Below are positions 3,819 to 9,021 of a stretch of DNA of 43,251 nucleotides, in pieces. Made by a program: the position numbers and the translations under genes. Under the pieces are notes generated by a model, which saw nothing but the letters and a program-made list of their open reading frames with translations, was not told where the DNA came from and ran no database searches. The DNA is from an uncultured Anaerolineales bacterium. GTDB taxonomy: Bacteria; Chloroflexota; Anaerolineae; B4-G1; SLSP01. Every line of letters starts with the position of its first letter. Position 1 is the stretch's first letter. The stretch spans positions 1-43,251 of the forward strand of contig CAYLRT010000010.1 of the NCBI GenBank assembly GCA_964385885.1. The letters run 5' to 3'.

Positions 3819-3951
3819 CCGTTCCGATCCTCCTCAAAATAAAGCCGAAACCGGCATTAACTTACCACAAACCATGGGCATTATAAACCCAGAGAACACC
3901 AAAGCAATATGCGGATCCAACACAGAGCACGATTGGCCTGAAAGTCAGTCT

Positions 3952-3979
3952 TTGACAGAGCCCTCAAACTGAGTACAAT
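3952..3979 (+). promoter_or_regulatory. Sigma-70-type promoter candidate (TTGACA-N16-TACAAT) for the molybdoenzyme gene
   Basis: TTGACA at 3952-3957 and TACAAT at 3974-3979. Its position argues that ATG 4016, not GTG 3983, is the start codon. Confidence 0.45.
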
Positions 3980-4015
3980 GAAGTGAGTGAAGGAATATCC
4001 GAAGTGGGGCCCCTA

Positions 4016-6949
4016 ATGCTCATAACTGCAGTGCTAAATGGCGAGCGGCGTCAGTTTGACGTCACTCCCGGAGAGACGCTCTTCGATCTCCTGCGGCGTA
4101 GTGGAATCCGGAGCGTGAAATTCGGCAGCGAAGACGGAAGCGCTGGCTACAGCACGGTTCTGGTCAACGGTCGCCCCATCGACAGCGCTGTCCTTCTGGC
4201 TGCCCAGGTCGACGGGGCCGAGATACTCACCGTCGAAGGCCTCAACAAACGTCACTCTCCAGGATGGAAAGCTTCGGATGCCTGGCATCCCCTTCAACGC
4301 GCATTCATCGAAACCGGCGCCATCCAGAGCGGCTATGATACGCCAGCTCTCATCCTTGCCGGCAAAGCCTTACTCGACAGAAATCCCAATCCCACAGAGT
4401 CCGAGGTCCGCGACGCTATCAGTGGGATTATCTCCCGGGAGACTGGCTACGCCAAACCCGTGCTGGCCATCCTGCGTGCAGCTGCCTACATGCGCAGTGA
4501 GCCCCCTGAACCCATCGAAGGGAAGGCCACAGGACCACTTGCCGTGCAGGAAACGGTTGACCGGACGGGCCCAAGGTTGAATGTACAACCCAAGATCTTC
4601 AACTCGGATGCAGCACCGAGCTTCTCAGTGGTCGGCAAGCCCCTGCCAAAGGTCGATGCACCAAAGCTGGCGCAGGGTAAGCCGGCATTTGCGGCAGACT
4701 TCGAGCGTCCGGGCATGCTCTATGCCAAGATCCTCCACAGCCCCCATGCCCATGCTTTCATCAAAGAGATCGATACCAGCGCCGCAGAGGCGTTGCCAGG
4801 CGTACACGCAGTCCTGTGTTACAAGAACGTACCCCGAGTCCCCTTCTCCACCGCCGGGCAATCCTATCCCATCCCTGGCCCTTTGGATTACGTCAGCTTC
4901 GACAACAAAGTGCGTTACGTCGGCGATCGCGTCGCGGCAGTTGCAGCAGAGACACCGGAGATCGCGGAGGAGGCACTGTCACTCATTCGGGTGGACTACG
5001 AGGTGCTCCCCCCGGTGCTCAGCCTTGACCAGGCGATGGCAGAGGATGCCCCTGTCATTCACGACGAGCCTGATTACGTGAACTTCGGTGAGAGCGATCC
5101 CCAGCGCAACCTGGTCGCCCGCGTGTGCATTGACATCGGTGACGTGGATGAGGCACTGGAGCGTGCAGATTACGTCTTCGAGACCCAGGTCGAAACCCAG
5201 AAAATGAAGCATGTGCCTCTGGAGCCCTGGGTTGTTCTCACCTATTGGGACGAGGACGACCGACTCGTCATCCTGAGCTCGACGCAGGTGCCGTTCCACG
5301 TGCGACGCATCCTGGCACCAGTCTTAGGCCTCACCGAGAAGCAGATTCGGGTCATCAAGCCGAGGATCGGAGCTGCCTTCGGTAACAAGCAGGAGATTTA
5401 CGAGGATATTCCAGCTCATCTCACCATCGCAACGGGAAAGCCTGTGCTCTTGACACTGACCCGCGAGGAACAATTCATCTATACGACCACACGCCACCCT
5501 ATGCGTGTTACCTATCGCATCGGTGTGCAGAGCGACGGCACAATGATCGCCCAAGACCTTCATGCGTTGAGTGATACGGGCGCTTACGGGGGACATGGGC
5601 TGACTGTGTTGGGCAACACAGGCCATAAGACCCTTCCCCTCTACAACACGCCGCACGTGCGGTTTTGGGGAGAGACCTACTACACAACGCTGCCCCGCGC
5701 CGGGGCCTATCGAGGGTATGGCGTCACACAAGGGGTCGTGGCCACAGAGACCCTGATCACGCAAGCGGCACGCGAACTGGGGTGGGATCCCCTCGAGTTC
5801 AGGCTCAAGAACATCATCGCTCCTCATACTGAAAACATTATGAGCAAAGCCTGGAGTGAAGGACGTGAGGCACATGGCGAGATGATCGAAACCAATGCCC
5901 TGCGAGAAGCGGCATTCCAGGGAGCCACTGCGATTGGCTGGTACGATAAATACGGCAATCCTGAGTGGCACATCGTCCCGGGGCACCCTCACCTGCGCCG
6001 GGGCATCGGCGTCGCCTTCCTGATGCAGGGCTCTGGGATCCCCAATCTGGATATGGGATCAGCCCTGATCAAGATGAACGACGATGGATCATTCAACCTC
6101 CTGATGGGTGCTACTGACCTGGGAACCGGTTCAGATACTGTGTTGGGGCAGATCGCGGCGGAGATCCTGGGTTGCAGCCTCGATGACTTCATCATTCGCT
6201 CTTCAGACACCGATCTTACCCCCTTCGACAAAGGGGCCTACGCCTCAAGCACCACCTACGTGAGCGGTGGTGCTGTGGCGCGGGCGGCATCTCAGGTCGC
6301 CCAACAGATCAAAGAGGTCGCGGCCGAGATGATCGGTGGGGAGCCCCAAGACTTCACCCTGCGAGATGCCAAAGTGTGGCGGGACAAGGAAACCAGCCTC
6401 ACGTTCCGAGAAGTTGCACTCTACAGCCTGCACACCCACAATCAACATCAAATCATGGGATTGGGCTCTTTCGTCAGTCCTGTCAGTCCTCCTCCGTTCG
6501 CCGCGCAGTTCGCAGAAGTGACCGTAGATATCGAGACCGGACAGACCCGGGTAGATCATCTGCTTATTGCACTGGATTCGGGGCAGGTCATCAACCCGCT
6601 GACGGCCAGTGGCCAGGCTGAGGGAGGCATGCATCAGGCACTTGGGTACGCACTGACGGAGGAGCTTATCTACGATGCCCAAGGTCGGACCGTGAATCCG
6701 CGTTTGGATGACTATCGCATCTTCCGGGCCGACGAGACACCACCGATGACGACTCTCTTCTATACTACCTTCGAGCCGTCTCATCCTGTAGGTGTGAAAT
6801 CGGTGGCCGAGATCGTGGTCAACGGCGTGGCACCAGCCGTGCTCAATGCCATTTACGATGCCACAGGTGTCATGATGCATAAGACGCCAGTGACTCCGCA
6901 GCGATTGTGGAAGGCTCTTCAGCGCAAGGCGCCGCCACTGACACCATAG
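4016..6949 (+). CDS. Xanthine dehydrogenase-family molybdopterin oxidoreductase: single-chain aldehyde-oxidoreductase architecture with cysteine-less [2Fe-2S]-like N-domains
   Basis: The N-terminus MLITAVLNGERRQFDV matches small-subunit starts. It has an a/b-hammerhead region (VGKPLPKVDAPKLAQGKPAFAADF) and the Mo-domain motifs STQVPFHVRR, GAAFGNKQE and VAEIVVNGVAPAVLNAIYDATG. The track ORF begins at GTG 3983. Confidence 0.88.
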   Translation: MLITAVLNGERRQFDVTPGETLFDLLRRSGIRSVKFGSEDGSAGYSTVLVNGRPIDSAVLLAAQVDGAEILTVEGLNKRHSPGWKASDAWHPLQRAFIETGAIQSGYDTPALILAGKALLDRNPNPTESEVRDAISGIISRETGYAKPVLAILRAAAYMRSEPPEPIEGKATGPLAVQETVDRTGPRLNVQPKIFNSDAAPSFSVVGKPLPKVDAPKLAQGKPAFAADFERPGMLYAKILHSPHAHAFIKEIDTSAAEALPGVHAVLCYKNVPRVPFSTAGQSYPIPGPLDYVSFDNKVRYVGDRVAAVAAETPEIAEEALSLIRVDYEVLPPVLSLDQAMAEDAPVIHDEPDYVNFGESDPQRNLVARVCIDIGDVDEALERADYVFETQVETQKMKHVPLEPWVVLTYWDEDDRLVILSSTQVPFHVRRILAPVLGLTEKQIRVIKPRIGAAFGNKQEIYEDIPAHLTIATGKPVLLTLTREEQFIYTTTRHPMRVTYRIGVQSDGTMIAQDLHALSDTGAYGGHGLTVLGNTGHKTLPLYNTPHVRFWGETYYTTLPRAGAYRGYGVTQGVVATETLITQAARELGWDPLEFRLKNIIAPHTENIMSKAWSEGREAHGEMIETNALREAAFQGATAIGWYDKYGNPEWHIVPGHPHLRRGIGVAFLMQGSGIPNLDMGSALIKMNDDGSFNLLMGATDLGTGSDTVLGQIAAEILGCSLDDFIIRSSDTDLTPFDKGAYASSTTYVSGGAVARAASQVAQQIKEVAAEMIGGEPQDFTLRDAKVWRDKETSLTFREVALYSLHTHNQHQIMGLGSFVSPVSPPPFAAQFAEVTVDIETGQTRVDHLLIALDSGQVINPLTASGQAEGGMHQALGYALTEELIYDAQGRTVNPRLDDYRIFRADETPPMTTLFYTTFEPSHPVGVKSVAEIVVNGVAPAVLNAIYDATGVMMHKTPVTPQRLWKALQRKAPPLTP

Positions 6950-6968
6950 GTTGAAATACCCTGTACAG

Positions 6969-7008
6969 ATCAGAAGGCGGCGCAGAAGAGGAAGCGCCGC
7001 CTTCTGAT
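6969..7008 (+). terminator. Perfect 15-bp GC-rich hairpin after the molybdoenzyme stop codon (weak U-tract)
   Basis: ATCAGAAGGCGGCGC, a 10-nt loop, then GCGCCGCCTTCTGAT, followed by ATTGC. Confidence 0.45.
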
Positions 7009-7140
7009 ATTGCAGAAGCAACGGACATCGTGGGGGACGTCGGGAGATTCTGTCGATCGGCAGAGCGTCCTGACGAGTGCGTGACAAGCGCAAAAGATGT
7101 GACCAAGAAGTTACGGAGTTTTCTAAGGAGGAGACGTGCA

Positions 7141-9021
7141 ATGAGCTGGGAGAAATACCATCTACCGCAAGAAGCCGCGGACATCCTGGCACGGAGCCCG
7201 CAGGTGATCGTAGCCAACACAGTGGCTGAGCTGATAAACCTGGCGTGCGGTGGCCTGGGAAGCAACCACTTCGAGGTAGCCTACGACGTGCCAGGTAACG
7301 GTGAGATCGTAGAGGCCATCGTGGCCCGGGTGCGCAACGGTGTCTCGGTGAATTACCCCGAACCCTACATGCGGCGCCGAGACCCGGATTGTCTTGTCAT
7401 CGCGGATGATAAACCCACTGACAAGCCCACATTCAAGGAACGATTCGGCATCGACTTCGAATCTGTCCGTCAGGAAACCTTTGAGTGGATGGCGTCGGTT
7501 CCCCTGGCGATGTTTGCCTACGTTGCGGGGCAGCAAGGCATGGGGACGGACTCCATCGCCATCGTACCGGCCAACGCGGGCTTCTTCGCGCTTGCCCTGG
7601 CGCTGCTGCAGGGCATCATTCACGAAAAGGACCTGTCACCCGACTTCAATCCTCAATCCATCATCTACGTGGCGCCCGTGTTTCGGCACACCCACTTCCA
7701 CGGCAAGCAAGTCGTGGTCCACAATCGCCTGGACCATCTGCATGAGATGTTTGCCTACAACCTCTACCCCGGCCCTAGCGCCAAAAAGGGCGTCTACGGC
7801 ATGTTGTTGACACAAGGAGAGCGTGAGGGATGGGTGACGACACACTGCTCTGCGGTTCGAGTCGTCACACCGTACGACAACGTCACGACCATCATGCATG
7901 AAGCAGCCAGCGGTGGTGGCAAGAGTGAGATGCTGGAACATGCACATCGAGAGGACGATGGGACCCTGCTGTTGGGTGAGAACCTGATTACGGGAGAACG
8001 TCGCTACCTGGAGATCCCGCGCTCCTGCCAACTCCAGCCGGTCGCTGATGACATGGCACTGTGCCATCCCTCCCTGCAGAACGACACAGGCAAGCTTGTA
8101 ATCACTGACGCCGAGGACGCATGGTTCCTGAGAGTCAATCACATCAACCATTACGGGACCGACGTACACCTGGAGCGACTGACTGCAGAGCCCCCCGTCC
8201 CCCTCCTGTTCCTGAACATCTATGCCGTCCCGGGCAGCCGTGCGTTGATCTGGGAACACATCGAGGATGAGCCCGGCAGACCTTGTCCGAATCCCAGGGT
8301 GGTGATCCCACGGCGTATCTTCCCCGACATCGTCCACGAGCCAGTGGAGGTTGACATCAGGAGCTTTGGCGTCCGCACCCCACCCTGCACTGAGGAACAC
8401 CCGACCTATGGCATCATGGGTCTCTTCCACATCTTACCACCTGCCCTGGCGTGGTTGTGGAGACTCGCTGCTCCTCGTGGTTATGCCAATCCCAGCATCA
8501 TCGATTCGCGGGGCATGAGCAGTGAAGGCGTAGGGTCCTACTGGCCCTTTGCAACGGGCCGGCGAGTCGACCAGGCCAACCTGCTACTCGCTCAGTTCAG
8601 GGAACATCTCAACACCCGCTATGTTCTATGCCCCAACCAGTACGTGGGCGCCTGGCGCGTCGGCTTCATGGGAGAGTGGATCATGCGCGAATATCTGGCG
8701 CGCCGCGGGACCGCGCGGTTCAAGCCCGGGCAGATCCGTCCCGCGCGCTGCGCCTTGCTCGGGTATGCCCTGCATCAACTTCAGGTCGAGGGGCGGTTCG
8801 TGTCCCGGTGGTTCCTGCAGGTGAACACGCAACCCGAAGTGGGAAACGAGGGGTACGATGCAGGAGCTCGCATGCTGTACGATTTCTTTAAAAAGGAACT
8901 TGAACTATACCTCGTCGACGATCTGGACCCACTAGGCCGCAGAATTATTGAATGTTTCATGGATCACGGCTCCGTGGCGGACTATGCCTCTCTAATCCCT
9001 CAAGTTGACTTCATCCCATGA
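7141..9021 (+). CDS. Large uncharacterised P-loop protein, DUF4914-like
   Basis: ATG 7141 is preceded by TAAGGAGGAG. The protein is 626 aa with a Walker-A-like SGGGKSE (7909-7929) resembling the HPr kinase/PEPCK-type P-loop. The family assignment is from memory of the DUF4914 length and motif. Confidence 0.7.
   Translation: MSWEKYHLPQEAADILARSPQVIVANTVAELINLACGGLGSNHFEVAYDVPGNGEIVEAIVARVRNGVSVNYPEPYMRRRDPDCLVIADDKPTDKPTFKERFGIDFESVRQETFEWMASVPLAMFAYVAGQQGMGTDSIAIVPANAGFFALALALLQGIIHEKDLSPDFNPQSIIYVAPVFRHTHFHGKQVVVHNRLDHLHEMFAYNLYPGPSAKKGVYGMLLTQGEREGWVTTHCSAVRVVTPYDNVTTIMHEAASGGGKSEMLEHAHREDDGTLLLGENLITGERRYLEIPRSCQLQPVADDMALCHPSLQNDTGKLVITDAEDAWFLRVNHINHYGTDVHLERLTAEPPVPLLFLNIYAVPGSRALIWEHIEDEPGRPCPNPRVVIPRRIFPDIVHEPVEVDIRSFGVRTPPCTEEHPTYGIMGLFHILPPALAWLWRLAAPRGYANPSIIDSRGMSSEGVGSYWPFATGRRVDQANLLLAQFREHLNTRYVLCPNQYVGAWRVGFMGEWIMREYLARRGTARFKPGQIRPARCALLGYALHQLQVEGRFVSRWFLQVNTQPEVGNEGYDAGARMLYDFFKKELELYLVDDLDPLGRRIIECFMDHGSVADYASLIPQVDFIP

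Follow-up and report, generated by a model that had tools for sequence, protein, structure and literature searches.

Two [2Fe-2S] clusters carried on eight cysteines are a trait of the xanthine oxidase family of molybdenum (Mo) enzymes. Within this family, XdhD of Escherichia coli (b2881, formerly YgfN) has been assigned as the reductase of the reductive uricolytic pathway: purified XdhD, which was recovered together with a roughly 30-kDa protein taken as YgfM, converts urate into 2,8-dioxopurine ('yanthine') with reduced nicotinamide adenine dinucleotide (NADH) (PMC12507026). The published XdhD-YgfM model assumes transfer from NADH through flavin adenine dinucleotide (FAD) to Mo, YgfM being described as an electron-transfer module (PMC12507026; commentary PMC12990295), and a glutamic acid that is absent from XdhA, E606, was proposed to orient urate and set the regiochemistry of 2,8-dioxopurine (PMC12507026). 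In Chloroflexota, SsnA clusters were described as carrying XdhA/XdhD homologues together with an F420-type luciferase-family enzyme (PMC12507026). Here we analyzed an XdhD-like gene at positions 4016-6949 (+ strand) of a 43,251-nucleotide stretch of DNA from an uncultured Anaerolineales bacterium of the Chloroflexota (contig CAYLRT010000010.1 of assembly GCA_964385885.1), hereafter the window. Its product has lost the cysteine ligands of both clusters, and its Mo domain is conserved.

Alignment of the protein with chains of the Protein Data Bank (PDB) using phmmer revealed that none of the eight ligand positions is occupied by cysteine. Residues are numbered throughout from GTG 3983, the start of the mechanical open reading frame (ORF; 3983-6949, 988 amino acids). 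The ligand columns were set by the phmmer alignment of residues 18-177 to Desulfovibrio gigas aldehyde oxidoreductase (1sij), with positions counted along the printed alignment. C40, C45, C48 and C60 of 1sij, which we take to be ligands of its distal cluster, align with S49, A54, S57 and A69; C100, C103, C137 and C139, presumably the proximal ligands, align with S116, D119, S151 and E153. The former distal site (FeS II) belongs to a plant-ferredoxin-like domain (residues 12-85; 4016-4237, + strand), where the codons, which were checked, lie at 4127-4129 (S49), 4142-4144 (A54), 4151-4153 (S57) and 4187-4189 (A69). The former proximal site (FeS I) belongs to a Fer2_2-like helical domain (residues 86-175; 4238-4507, + strand), with codons at 4328-4330 (S116), 4337-4339 (D119), 4433-4435 (S151) and 4439-4441 (E153); glutamine Q115 is kept. 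No cysteine occurs in residues 1-200, and only three occur in the whole 988 amino acids. A Pfam scan of the whole ORF matched Fer2_2 (62.9 bits, residues 83-163), Ald_Xan_dh_C (97 bits), MoCoBD_1 (247 bits) and MoCoBD_2 (237 bits), the last three over their cut-offs, and gave no match to Fer2.

Since all eight cysteine ligands are replaced, the ferredoxin-like domains should be unable to bind [2Fe-2S] clusters, and the eight-cysteine trait of the family is absent from this protein. The original prediction for this locus, made from the sequence alone, had stated that every cluster ligand was replaced and that the region contained no cysteine; both statements are borne out by the residue-level alignment with solved enzymes, the codon check and the cysteine count, and the interval it gave, 4118-4450, corresponds to residues 46-156, exactly the former cluster region. 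The family alignment it had proposed as a check on the ligand columns placed no cysteine at any cluster position. Its further claim that the canonical path from Mo through FeS I to FeS II is impossible here follows from the absence of the ligands.

A search of 5.8 billion proteins identified about 78 homologue clusters (90% identity level) from Anaerolineae assemblies, 72-96% identical, that share the pattern S-[DAGT]-S-[VIAT] at the distal and S-D-S-E at the proximal positions. As the same pattern recurs in about 78 clusters from independent assemblies, it is due neither to chance nor to sequencing error. Serine, aspartic acid and glutamic acid occasionally ligate iron-sulfur clusters in other proteins, and the conservation of the replacement residues would fit domains that still assemble [2Fe-2S] clusters on these residues or on ligands supplied in trans. 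We consider this extremely improbable: two of the four distal positions are alanine here and position 69 is valine or isoleucine in the clade, residues 1-200 offer no cysteine, the Fer2 match is gone, and bulky F47 and Y56 stand in place of small residues around the site. We know of no natural [2Fe-2S] cluster with oxygen ligands only. The aromatic residues form part of a set of clade-specific replacements of small or polar residues around the former distal site (H47F, A56Y and L34F), which, from their positions in the alignment, look like a filling of the former distal pocket.

Comparison with known families placed the protein with XdhD. It is a single chain within the 950-1000 amino acids typical of XdhD, with ferredoxin-like domains fused to a Mo domain, and it contains the domain set of the xanthine oxidase family (Ald_Xan_dh_C, MoCoBD_1 and MoCoBD_2) with the catalytic glutamic acid and the cofactor-loop residues (glutamine of STQ, FGxK loop and arginine of RGxG). 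On the + strand, the a/b hammerhead domain Ald_Xan_dh_C (Pfam, as are the next two) covers residues 231-343 (4673-5011) and bears N282 and F306; MoCoBD_1 covers residues 376-611 (5108-5815) and bears Q435 (STQ), FGNKQE 466-471 and R577; and MoCoBD_2 covers residues 670-920 (5990-6742). E943 (6809-6811), the catalytic glutamate, occupies the alignment column of E869 in D. gigas aldehyde oxidoreductase, and E626 (5858-5860) corresponds by alignment to E606 of E. coli XdhD. The best NCBIfam model was TIGR03313 (XdhD), just ahead of XdhA, with a score of 677.3 bits that lies below the cut-off of 1101.9; E. coli XdhD itself scores 2122.8.

The E. coli K-12 protein (xdhD, L122:11317-14187) is 38% identical to the window's protein over the full length. 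Both unite two ferredoxin-like domains, hammerhead, MoCoBD_1 and MoCoBD_2 in one chain, both carry the active-site glutamic acid, both lack cysteine in all eight columns, and both genomes encode a YgfM-type protein, in the window's genome a putative partner. The first 170 residues of E. coli XdhD contain no cysteine; in the ligand columns it has D, A, D, S (distal) and S, N, S, D (proximal). The two differ in the replacement residues, in a glutamine that takes the place of R577 in E. coli, and in gene order: xdhD adjoins ygfM, ssnA and ygfK, whereas the window's gene looks monocistronic and the YgfM-like gene lies on another contig. By these comparisons the window's protein is a member of the XdhD kind and not a new kind of system. 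The missing ligands of XdhD are not mentioned in PMC12507026, in its commentary (PMC12990295) or in the other searchable literature, which does not cover subscription journals, and nothing relevant emerged when the literature was searched for xanthine oxidase family members that are Cys-less or pseudo-enzymes. In public records, E. coli XdhD is named 'molybdopterin-binding subunit and Fe-S binding subunit', TIGR03313 is named 'Mo/Fe-S-binding subunit', and many Cys-less fragments are named '(2Fe-2S)-binding protein'.

Two solved enzymes are of use for comparison. The single-chain aldehyde oxidoreductase of Desulfovibrio, to which the original prediction had likened the protein, is apt as regards architecture: D. 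gigas aldehyde oxidoreductase (MOP; 1sij/1vlb) likewise combines two FeS-type domains and a Mo domain in one chain that has no FAD domain. As the closest kin it does not hold, for that place falls to the XdhD type, which had not been recognized; MOP binds two [2Fe-2S] clusters through eight cysteines, is 26% identical and lacks the STQ glutamine, and the window's protein reaches only 405.3 bits on NF045668 (Desulfovibrio-type aldehyde oxidoreductase; cut-off 1100) and is also without the ligands for the two clusters of that type. The best match of the Mo domain among solved chains by sequence (1.9e-103) was the alpha subunit of 4-hydroxybenzoyl-coenzyme A (CoA) reductase from Thauera aromatica (1rm6), which resembles the XdhD type in being a dehydroxylating (reductive) member of the family. 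It differs in acting on a CoA thioester and in being built of three subunits, among them one for FeS and one for FAD, and it carries an additional [4Fe-4S] cluster.

For the analysis of constraint, 80 loci were fetched from species-representative genomes and the clades were compared column by column. The nearest relatives that keep the ligands are all-Cys Chloroflexota XdhD-like enzymes (e.g. L014, L040 and L045). These are 50-60% identical to the window's protein and share its length, FGNKQE and E626, and 282 of the 291 Mo-domain columns conserved in them are unchanged in the window's clade. The nine changed columns are mostly conservative (D282N, L306F, I381V, Q409K, I413L, G464A, M862I, M895L and P945V). 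The all-Cys enzymes differ in keeping the eight cysteines, in having an FAD-subunit gene nearly always directly upstream, and in often having genes for XdhC, an SsnA-like amidohydrolase and F420 functions nearby. Among the 47 ferredoxin-domain columns that are at least 90% conserved in all-Cys members, only the ligand columns have changed in the window's clade. The ratio of divergence between the N-terminal domains and the Mo domain was 1.41 for the window's clade, 1.22 and 1.15 for two other ligand-poor clades and 1.34-1.80 for four all-Cys clades; the N-terminal domains are therefore under no less constraint than in all-Cys clades. Across the subfamily, all 84 members keep Q435, F466, G467, K469 and R577, and all 84 keep E626; E943 is conserved in 82 of 84 rows, the other two being gaps. 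On this conservation, the XdhD-like gene is not decaying.

These results bear on whether redox chemistry has ceased in this protein, leaving a pseudo-enzyme that persists as a non-catalytic scaffold or relic, as the original prediction had allowed. Such a reading would fit the loss of the electron wire, the position of the gene alone among housekeeping genes and away from pathway genes, and the GAA found in this protein at the conserved GGG of the cofactor loop. We regard it as quite improbable, since the 282 conserved Mo-domain columns are intact, the catalytic E943 is kept together with Q435, R577 and E626, the ferredoxin-like domains are constrained, and the approximately 78 clusters are under strong purifying selection. 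In addition, another Cys-less clade still adjoins FAD-subunit and SsnA-like genes, and E. coli XdhD, without the same ligands, was reported to be catalytically active (PMC12507026). The remark in the same prediction that the Mo/pterin motifs look intact was correct for STQ (Q435), FGNKQE (466-471), R577 and E943.

The structure predicted with AlphaFold2 had a predicted local distance difference test (pLDDT) of 81 and a predicted template modelling score of 0.87, and its best PDB match was the D. gigas aldehyde oxidoreductase over the whole length (template modelling scores 0.80/0.86). The N-terminal domains were mostly at pLDDT 85-95, with dips at the former ligand loops and the lowest values in a surface loop (residues 81-87). 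The ferredoxin-like domains are retained as a folded and conserved scaffold, which we infer helps to hold the pterin cofactor and to dock the YgfM-like subunit.

The history of the ligand loss was analyzed on a tree of the Mo domain alone, which leaves out the columns of the trait itself. The window's clade comprised 20 rows (support 100), and its sister was a clade with four distal cysteines and S-[DE]-S-E at the proximal positions; together (support 98) they were nested among all-Cys clades in which the FAD-subunit gene lies directly upstream. In the related genomes searched, the order follows organismal kinship: the window's family is fully Cys-less, a second family is distal-only and a third is all-Cys. 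Judging from the tree, the loss in Chloroflexota is clade-wide and stepwise, the proximal cluster, next to the pterin, having been lost first and the distal cluster after it. As the proximal cluster was lost first, the electron wire was already cut while the distal cluster was kept. E. coli XdhD was found outside the 83 Chloroflexota rows, and its ligand loss is therefore independent of theirs.

Further losses were revealed on the same tree, where the minimum number of changes was at least five for the distal set and at least four for the proximal set. A clade of 11 from Caldilineaceae and Acidimicrobiia assemblies reads ST[ADSG][DE] at the distal and S[AS][DC]E at the proximal positions, with the FAD-subunit gene still adjacent in most loci. 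The distal set alone was lost in two lineages (DSD[VG] and CCCC), and one lineage reads DSDG and CESD. Two proteins that are 92% identical, L043 (4286-7258) and L044 (10001-12958), have both lost the distal set (DSDG), whereas their proximal positions read S, C, D, E and C, C, C, C, respectively; on this comparison the proximal loss in L043 appears to be very recent. F47, N282 and F306 are convergent between two independent fully Cys-less clades, and position 153 is acidic in every lineage without the proximal set. In the D. gigas structure the cysteine equivalent to position 153 presumably contacts the pterin amino group, and by analogy a carboxylate at this position could keep the contact.

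A wider survey covered 43 fused relatives taken from 50%-identity cluster representatives: 38 are all-Cys, two lack ligands (one E. coli-XdhD-like representative and one without the distal set) and three are unreadable over the eight columns. All instances of ligand loss within this sample belong to XdhD-type proteins. The existence of Cys-less CoxS-like small subunits that stand alone was considered and rejected; the short matches are incomplete sequences or split gene calls that belong to this fused subfamily, and the other small subunits found all have the cysteine ligands, save one substitution in P0192.

Two observations on the neighbours of other clades are added here. In an all-Cys clade of Anaerolineaceae (L051, L056, L063, L067-L069, L072, L074 and L075), the TxGG motif of the upstream FAD subunit is degraded (SLTN, SLAN, SVDN and similar), which suggests that FAD binding was lost there and the clusters kept, opposite to the window's clade. 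In the subclade of the distal-only clade that reads CCCC and SDSE, a gene for a 455-amino-acid protein lies directly 3' of the XdhD-like gene (L013:10997-12364, + strand; also L032 and L033); this protein has no Pfam match and is unrelated to the DUF4914 protein encoded downstream in the window.

The window's assembly (3.4 Mb, 277 contigs, 91% complete) contains three other Mo-hydroxylase loci, all with normal FeS subunits, and genes for XdhC on contig C37 and for MoeA on contig C20; these two genes are indirect evidence that the enzyme may bind a molybdopterin cofactor with a sulfido ligand. The original prediction had noted no FAD-subunit or XdhC gene adjacent to the XdhD-like gene; this is right for the neighbourhood and wrong for the genome, in which a YgfM-like FAD-subunit homologue is encoded at C19:25056-25916, unlinked to the XdhD-like gene. 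When the partner subunits of the all-Cys relatives are compared with this genome, they match this homologue best (34-39% identity); its identity to YgfM is 30%, and on TIGR03312 it scores 89.8 bits, below the cut-off of 241.5. Its locus also encodes a nucleoside-type ABC transporter, a 4HBT thioesterase and DUF1385, the FAD-like gene lying between the last two, and has an arrangement conserved across the family. The protein keeps 26 of 27 conserved partner-subunit columns and the TxGG motif, and AGGTD has become GGGAW.

Analysis of the neighbours of the all-Cys relatives revealed a YgfM-like FAD subunit, an SsnA-like amidohydrolase, XdhC, a luciferase-like enzyme (F420-type), CofC, CofD, CofE and Fno, and these neighbourhoods match the description of the Chloroflexota clusters in PMC12507026. 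The survey of Cys-less homologues and of their neighbours that the original prediction had called for thus yielded a pattern shared by about 78 clusters, recurrent loss, and uricolytic-type neighbours in the all-Cys kin. Fno, CofE and a luciferase-like F420-type enzyme are encoded together at C1:62432-64924 of the window's genome, unlinked to the XdhD-like gene, and this luciferase-like enzyme is 75% identical to one that adjoins all-Cys XdhD-like genes. Of 41 related genomes, 35 gave an SsnA score above the cut-off, which the window's assembly did not. In two relatives (L123 and L124), an epimerase gene and ssnA lie between hflX-ftsJ and trmD; in the window's genome this syntenic site is the gap between contigs C136 and C68, with hflX-ftsJ at the starting edge of C136 and trmD at that of C68. 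Because the site falls in a contig gap, SsnA cannot be called absent, and the proposal that SsnA was lost in this species was withdrawn.

The retained partner raises the question of whether the YgfM-like FAD subunit still serves as the entry point for electrons, from which a non-canonical relay would carry them to Mo. The former cluster sites might hold a different bound cofactor or metal, the subunits might be arranged differently, or electrons might tunnel over a very long range. The NADH-dependent conversion of urate by E. coli XdhD-YgfM (PMC12507026) speaks for such a relay, as do the presence of the YgfM-like gene in 22 of 24 genomes of the family with TxGG kept and the conserved replacement residues (S/D/S and S/D/S/E), which could bind a cation. 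Prediction of a complex between residues 12-341 and the YgfM-like protein gave a score of 0.82, the best of three controls being 0.00; three runs agreed in at least 92% of contacts, the partner had a pLDDT of at least 89, and the predicted interface sets the FAD loops against the former distal-cluster loop. Of 80 solved complexes 58 scored this high, as did 2 of 110 mismatched pairs; the scale is rough, since our own alignments were used. Similar complexes have been solved, and the pass may therefore only reflect that likeness to a textbook pair.

We nevertheless judge such a relay unlikely. Position 69 is alanine, valine or isoleucine and position 54 is often alanine or glycine, which are non-ligating for a metal, and the distal site seems to be packed with aromatic side chains. 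To our knowledge, no redox-active cofactor is known for such oxygen-only sites. Cluster spacings in solved xanthine dehydrogenase (XDH) structures are about 15, 12 and 8 A; by these spacings the distance from FAD to the pterin would be well over 20 A, too far for tunnelling at useful rates. The sister clade, in which the proximal cluster went first, shows the wire cut with the distal cluster still in place.

Overall, our analysis favours, with a probability of about 60%, an active Mo enzyme of the XdhD type that acts on a purine-like substrate, has no internal iron-sulfur wire and undergoes redox change directly at Mo. The sequences show the ligand loss, its recurrence, the conservation of the rest of the protein and the kinship with XdhD; cofactor content, substrate and electron route are what we infer. 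The alternative raised in the original prediction, a direct passage of electrons to another acceptor, is likewise the reading we would prefer. With both clusters gone and, by the spacings above, more than 20 A between FAD and the pterin, tunnelling would be too slow to be useful, and direct redox at Mo is favoured; lacking an internal wire, Mo would have to cycle at the active site itself. The enzyme, bearing the Mo cofactor and probably partnered by the YgfM-like protein in a heterodimer like that of E. coli, would be reduced and reoxidized at its active site in ping-pong fashion. The reductant of Mo(VI) would be a diffusible two-electron donor, such as NAD(P)H (NADH or its phosphorylated form) or reduced F420 (F420H2), or else a second purine, and the reduced Mo would afterwards be reoxidized by urate or a similar substrate; with xanthine as the donor, the net result would be a redox-neutral hydroxyl shift. 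Mo enzymes that work in comparable ways are known. Pyrogallol-phloroglucinol transhydroxylase of Pelobacter acidigallici carries out a redox-neutral hydroxyl transfer through a cosubstrate, with no intramolecular electron chain, and in plant sulfite oxidase Mo is reoxidized directly at the site. These enzymes, of the dimethyl sulfoxide reductase and sulfite oxidase families, respectively, are functional analogies only and have no sequence kinship with the XdhD type.

Several results weigh against an enzyme that cycles directly at Mo. The YgfM-like subunit is retained under purifying selection, 26 of 27 conserved columns being kept, and has no clear role if redox takes place at Mo alone. Urate reduction by the E. 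coli enzyme was assayed with NADH while YgfM was present, which at face value points to electron entry via FAD and is unexplained by a wire-less enzyme. The E. coli strain deleted for xdhA did not consume xanthine, which argues against xanthine as the reductant in E. coli, although the medium contained glucose, said to repress the cluster (PMC12507026). The assignment to the XdhD type is itself weakened by the score below the TIGR03313 cut-off and by the low identity to E. coli XdhD, and no uricolytic gene, SsnA included, is linked to the XdhD-like gene within the window.

A broader proposal, which we put forward tentatively and hold with less confidence than the reading for the window's protein, is that XdhD-type enzymes, E. 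coli XdhD included, work without an intramolecular wire. Mo would be cycled directly at the active site; as partner it would use another purine or a carrier of hydride, namely NAD(P)H or, in Chloroflexota, F420H2, and the ferredoxin-like domains and the YgfM-like subunit would be structural leftovers. A wire that is dispensable at the Mo site would explain why the wire was lost repeatedly in this subfamily only.

Analysis of the gene boundaries favoured ATG 4016 as the true start, which gives a coding sequence of 977 amino acids (4016-6949, + strand). Homologues begin at the residue equivalent to M12, and a predicted promoter-like site of the sigma-70 type (3952-3979, + strand), near consensus with 11 of 12 matches (TTGACA, 16 nucleotides, TACAAT) and resting on that consensus match, ends 4 nucleotides before GTG 3983. 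Twenty nucleotides past the stop codon there is a perfect 15-bp GC-rich hairpin without a U-tract (6969-7008, + strand), which probably marks the end of the transcription unit. The gene downstream of the hairpin carries a separate AGGAGG motif and starts at ATG 7141, and the XdhD-like gene looks monocistronic.

That downstream gene encodes a DUF4914 protein of 626 amino acids (7141-9021, + strand; Pfam 1042 bits for a longer ORF from 7030, no NCBIfam match), of which no mention was found in the searchable literature. It was considered as a partner of the XdhD-like protein and rejected: it follows the XdhD-like gene only in a subclade of 76-96% identity, L020-L022 and L025-L028 of the same Cys-less clade are without it, and the strong hairpin and its own ribosome-binding site lie between the two genes. 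In the closest subclade it is accompanied by two small GerW/YtfJ-like genes and a Cu-oxidase_4 (PgeF-like) gene, an arrangement that looks like conserved local synteny and not a clade-wide partnership. Public sequencing runs that hold positions 3900-7200 of the window are mostly labelled as hydrothermal vent metagenomes, come from several studies, and none is recorded as RNA.

In the textbook xanthine oxidase family, electrons pass between Mo and the outside through two [2Fe-2S] clusters. A whole lineage has here removed both, the ligands having been substituted while the Mo site and the domain scaffold stay under strong constraint. The names 'Mo/Fe-S-binding subunit' and '(2Fe-2S)-binding protein' given by annotation pipelines clash with the absent ligands. 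E. coli XdhD, whose function was assigned only recently and which has drawn interest in connection with gout and the clearance of urate in the gut, shares the trait, and without clusters the published route from NADH through FAD to Mo has a gap that no known mechanism bridges. If XdhD-type enzymes do work without a wire, this would account for at least five ligand losses in one subfamily while the ligands are invariant elsewhere in the family; with a second purine as the partner, they would be redox-neutral purine transhydroxylases, turning, for example, xanthine into 2,8-dioxopurine via urate. The Chloroflexota provide a natural series of all-Cys, distal-only, proximal-only and fully Cys-less proteins as ready comparison enzymes.

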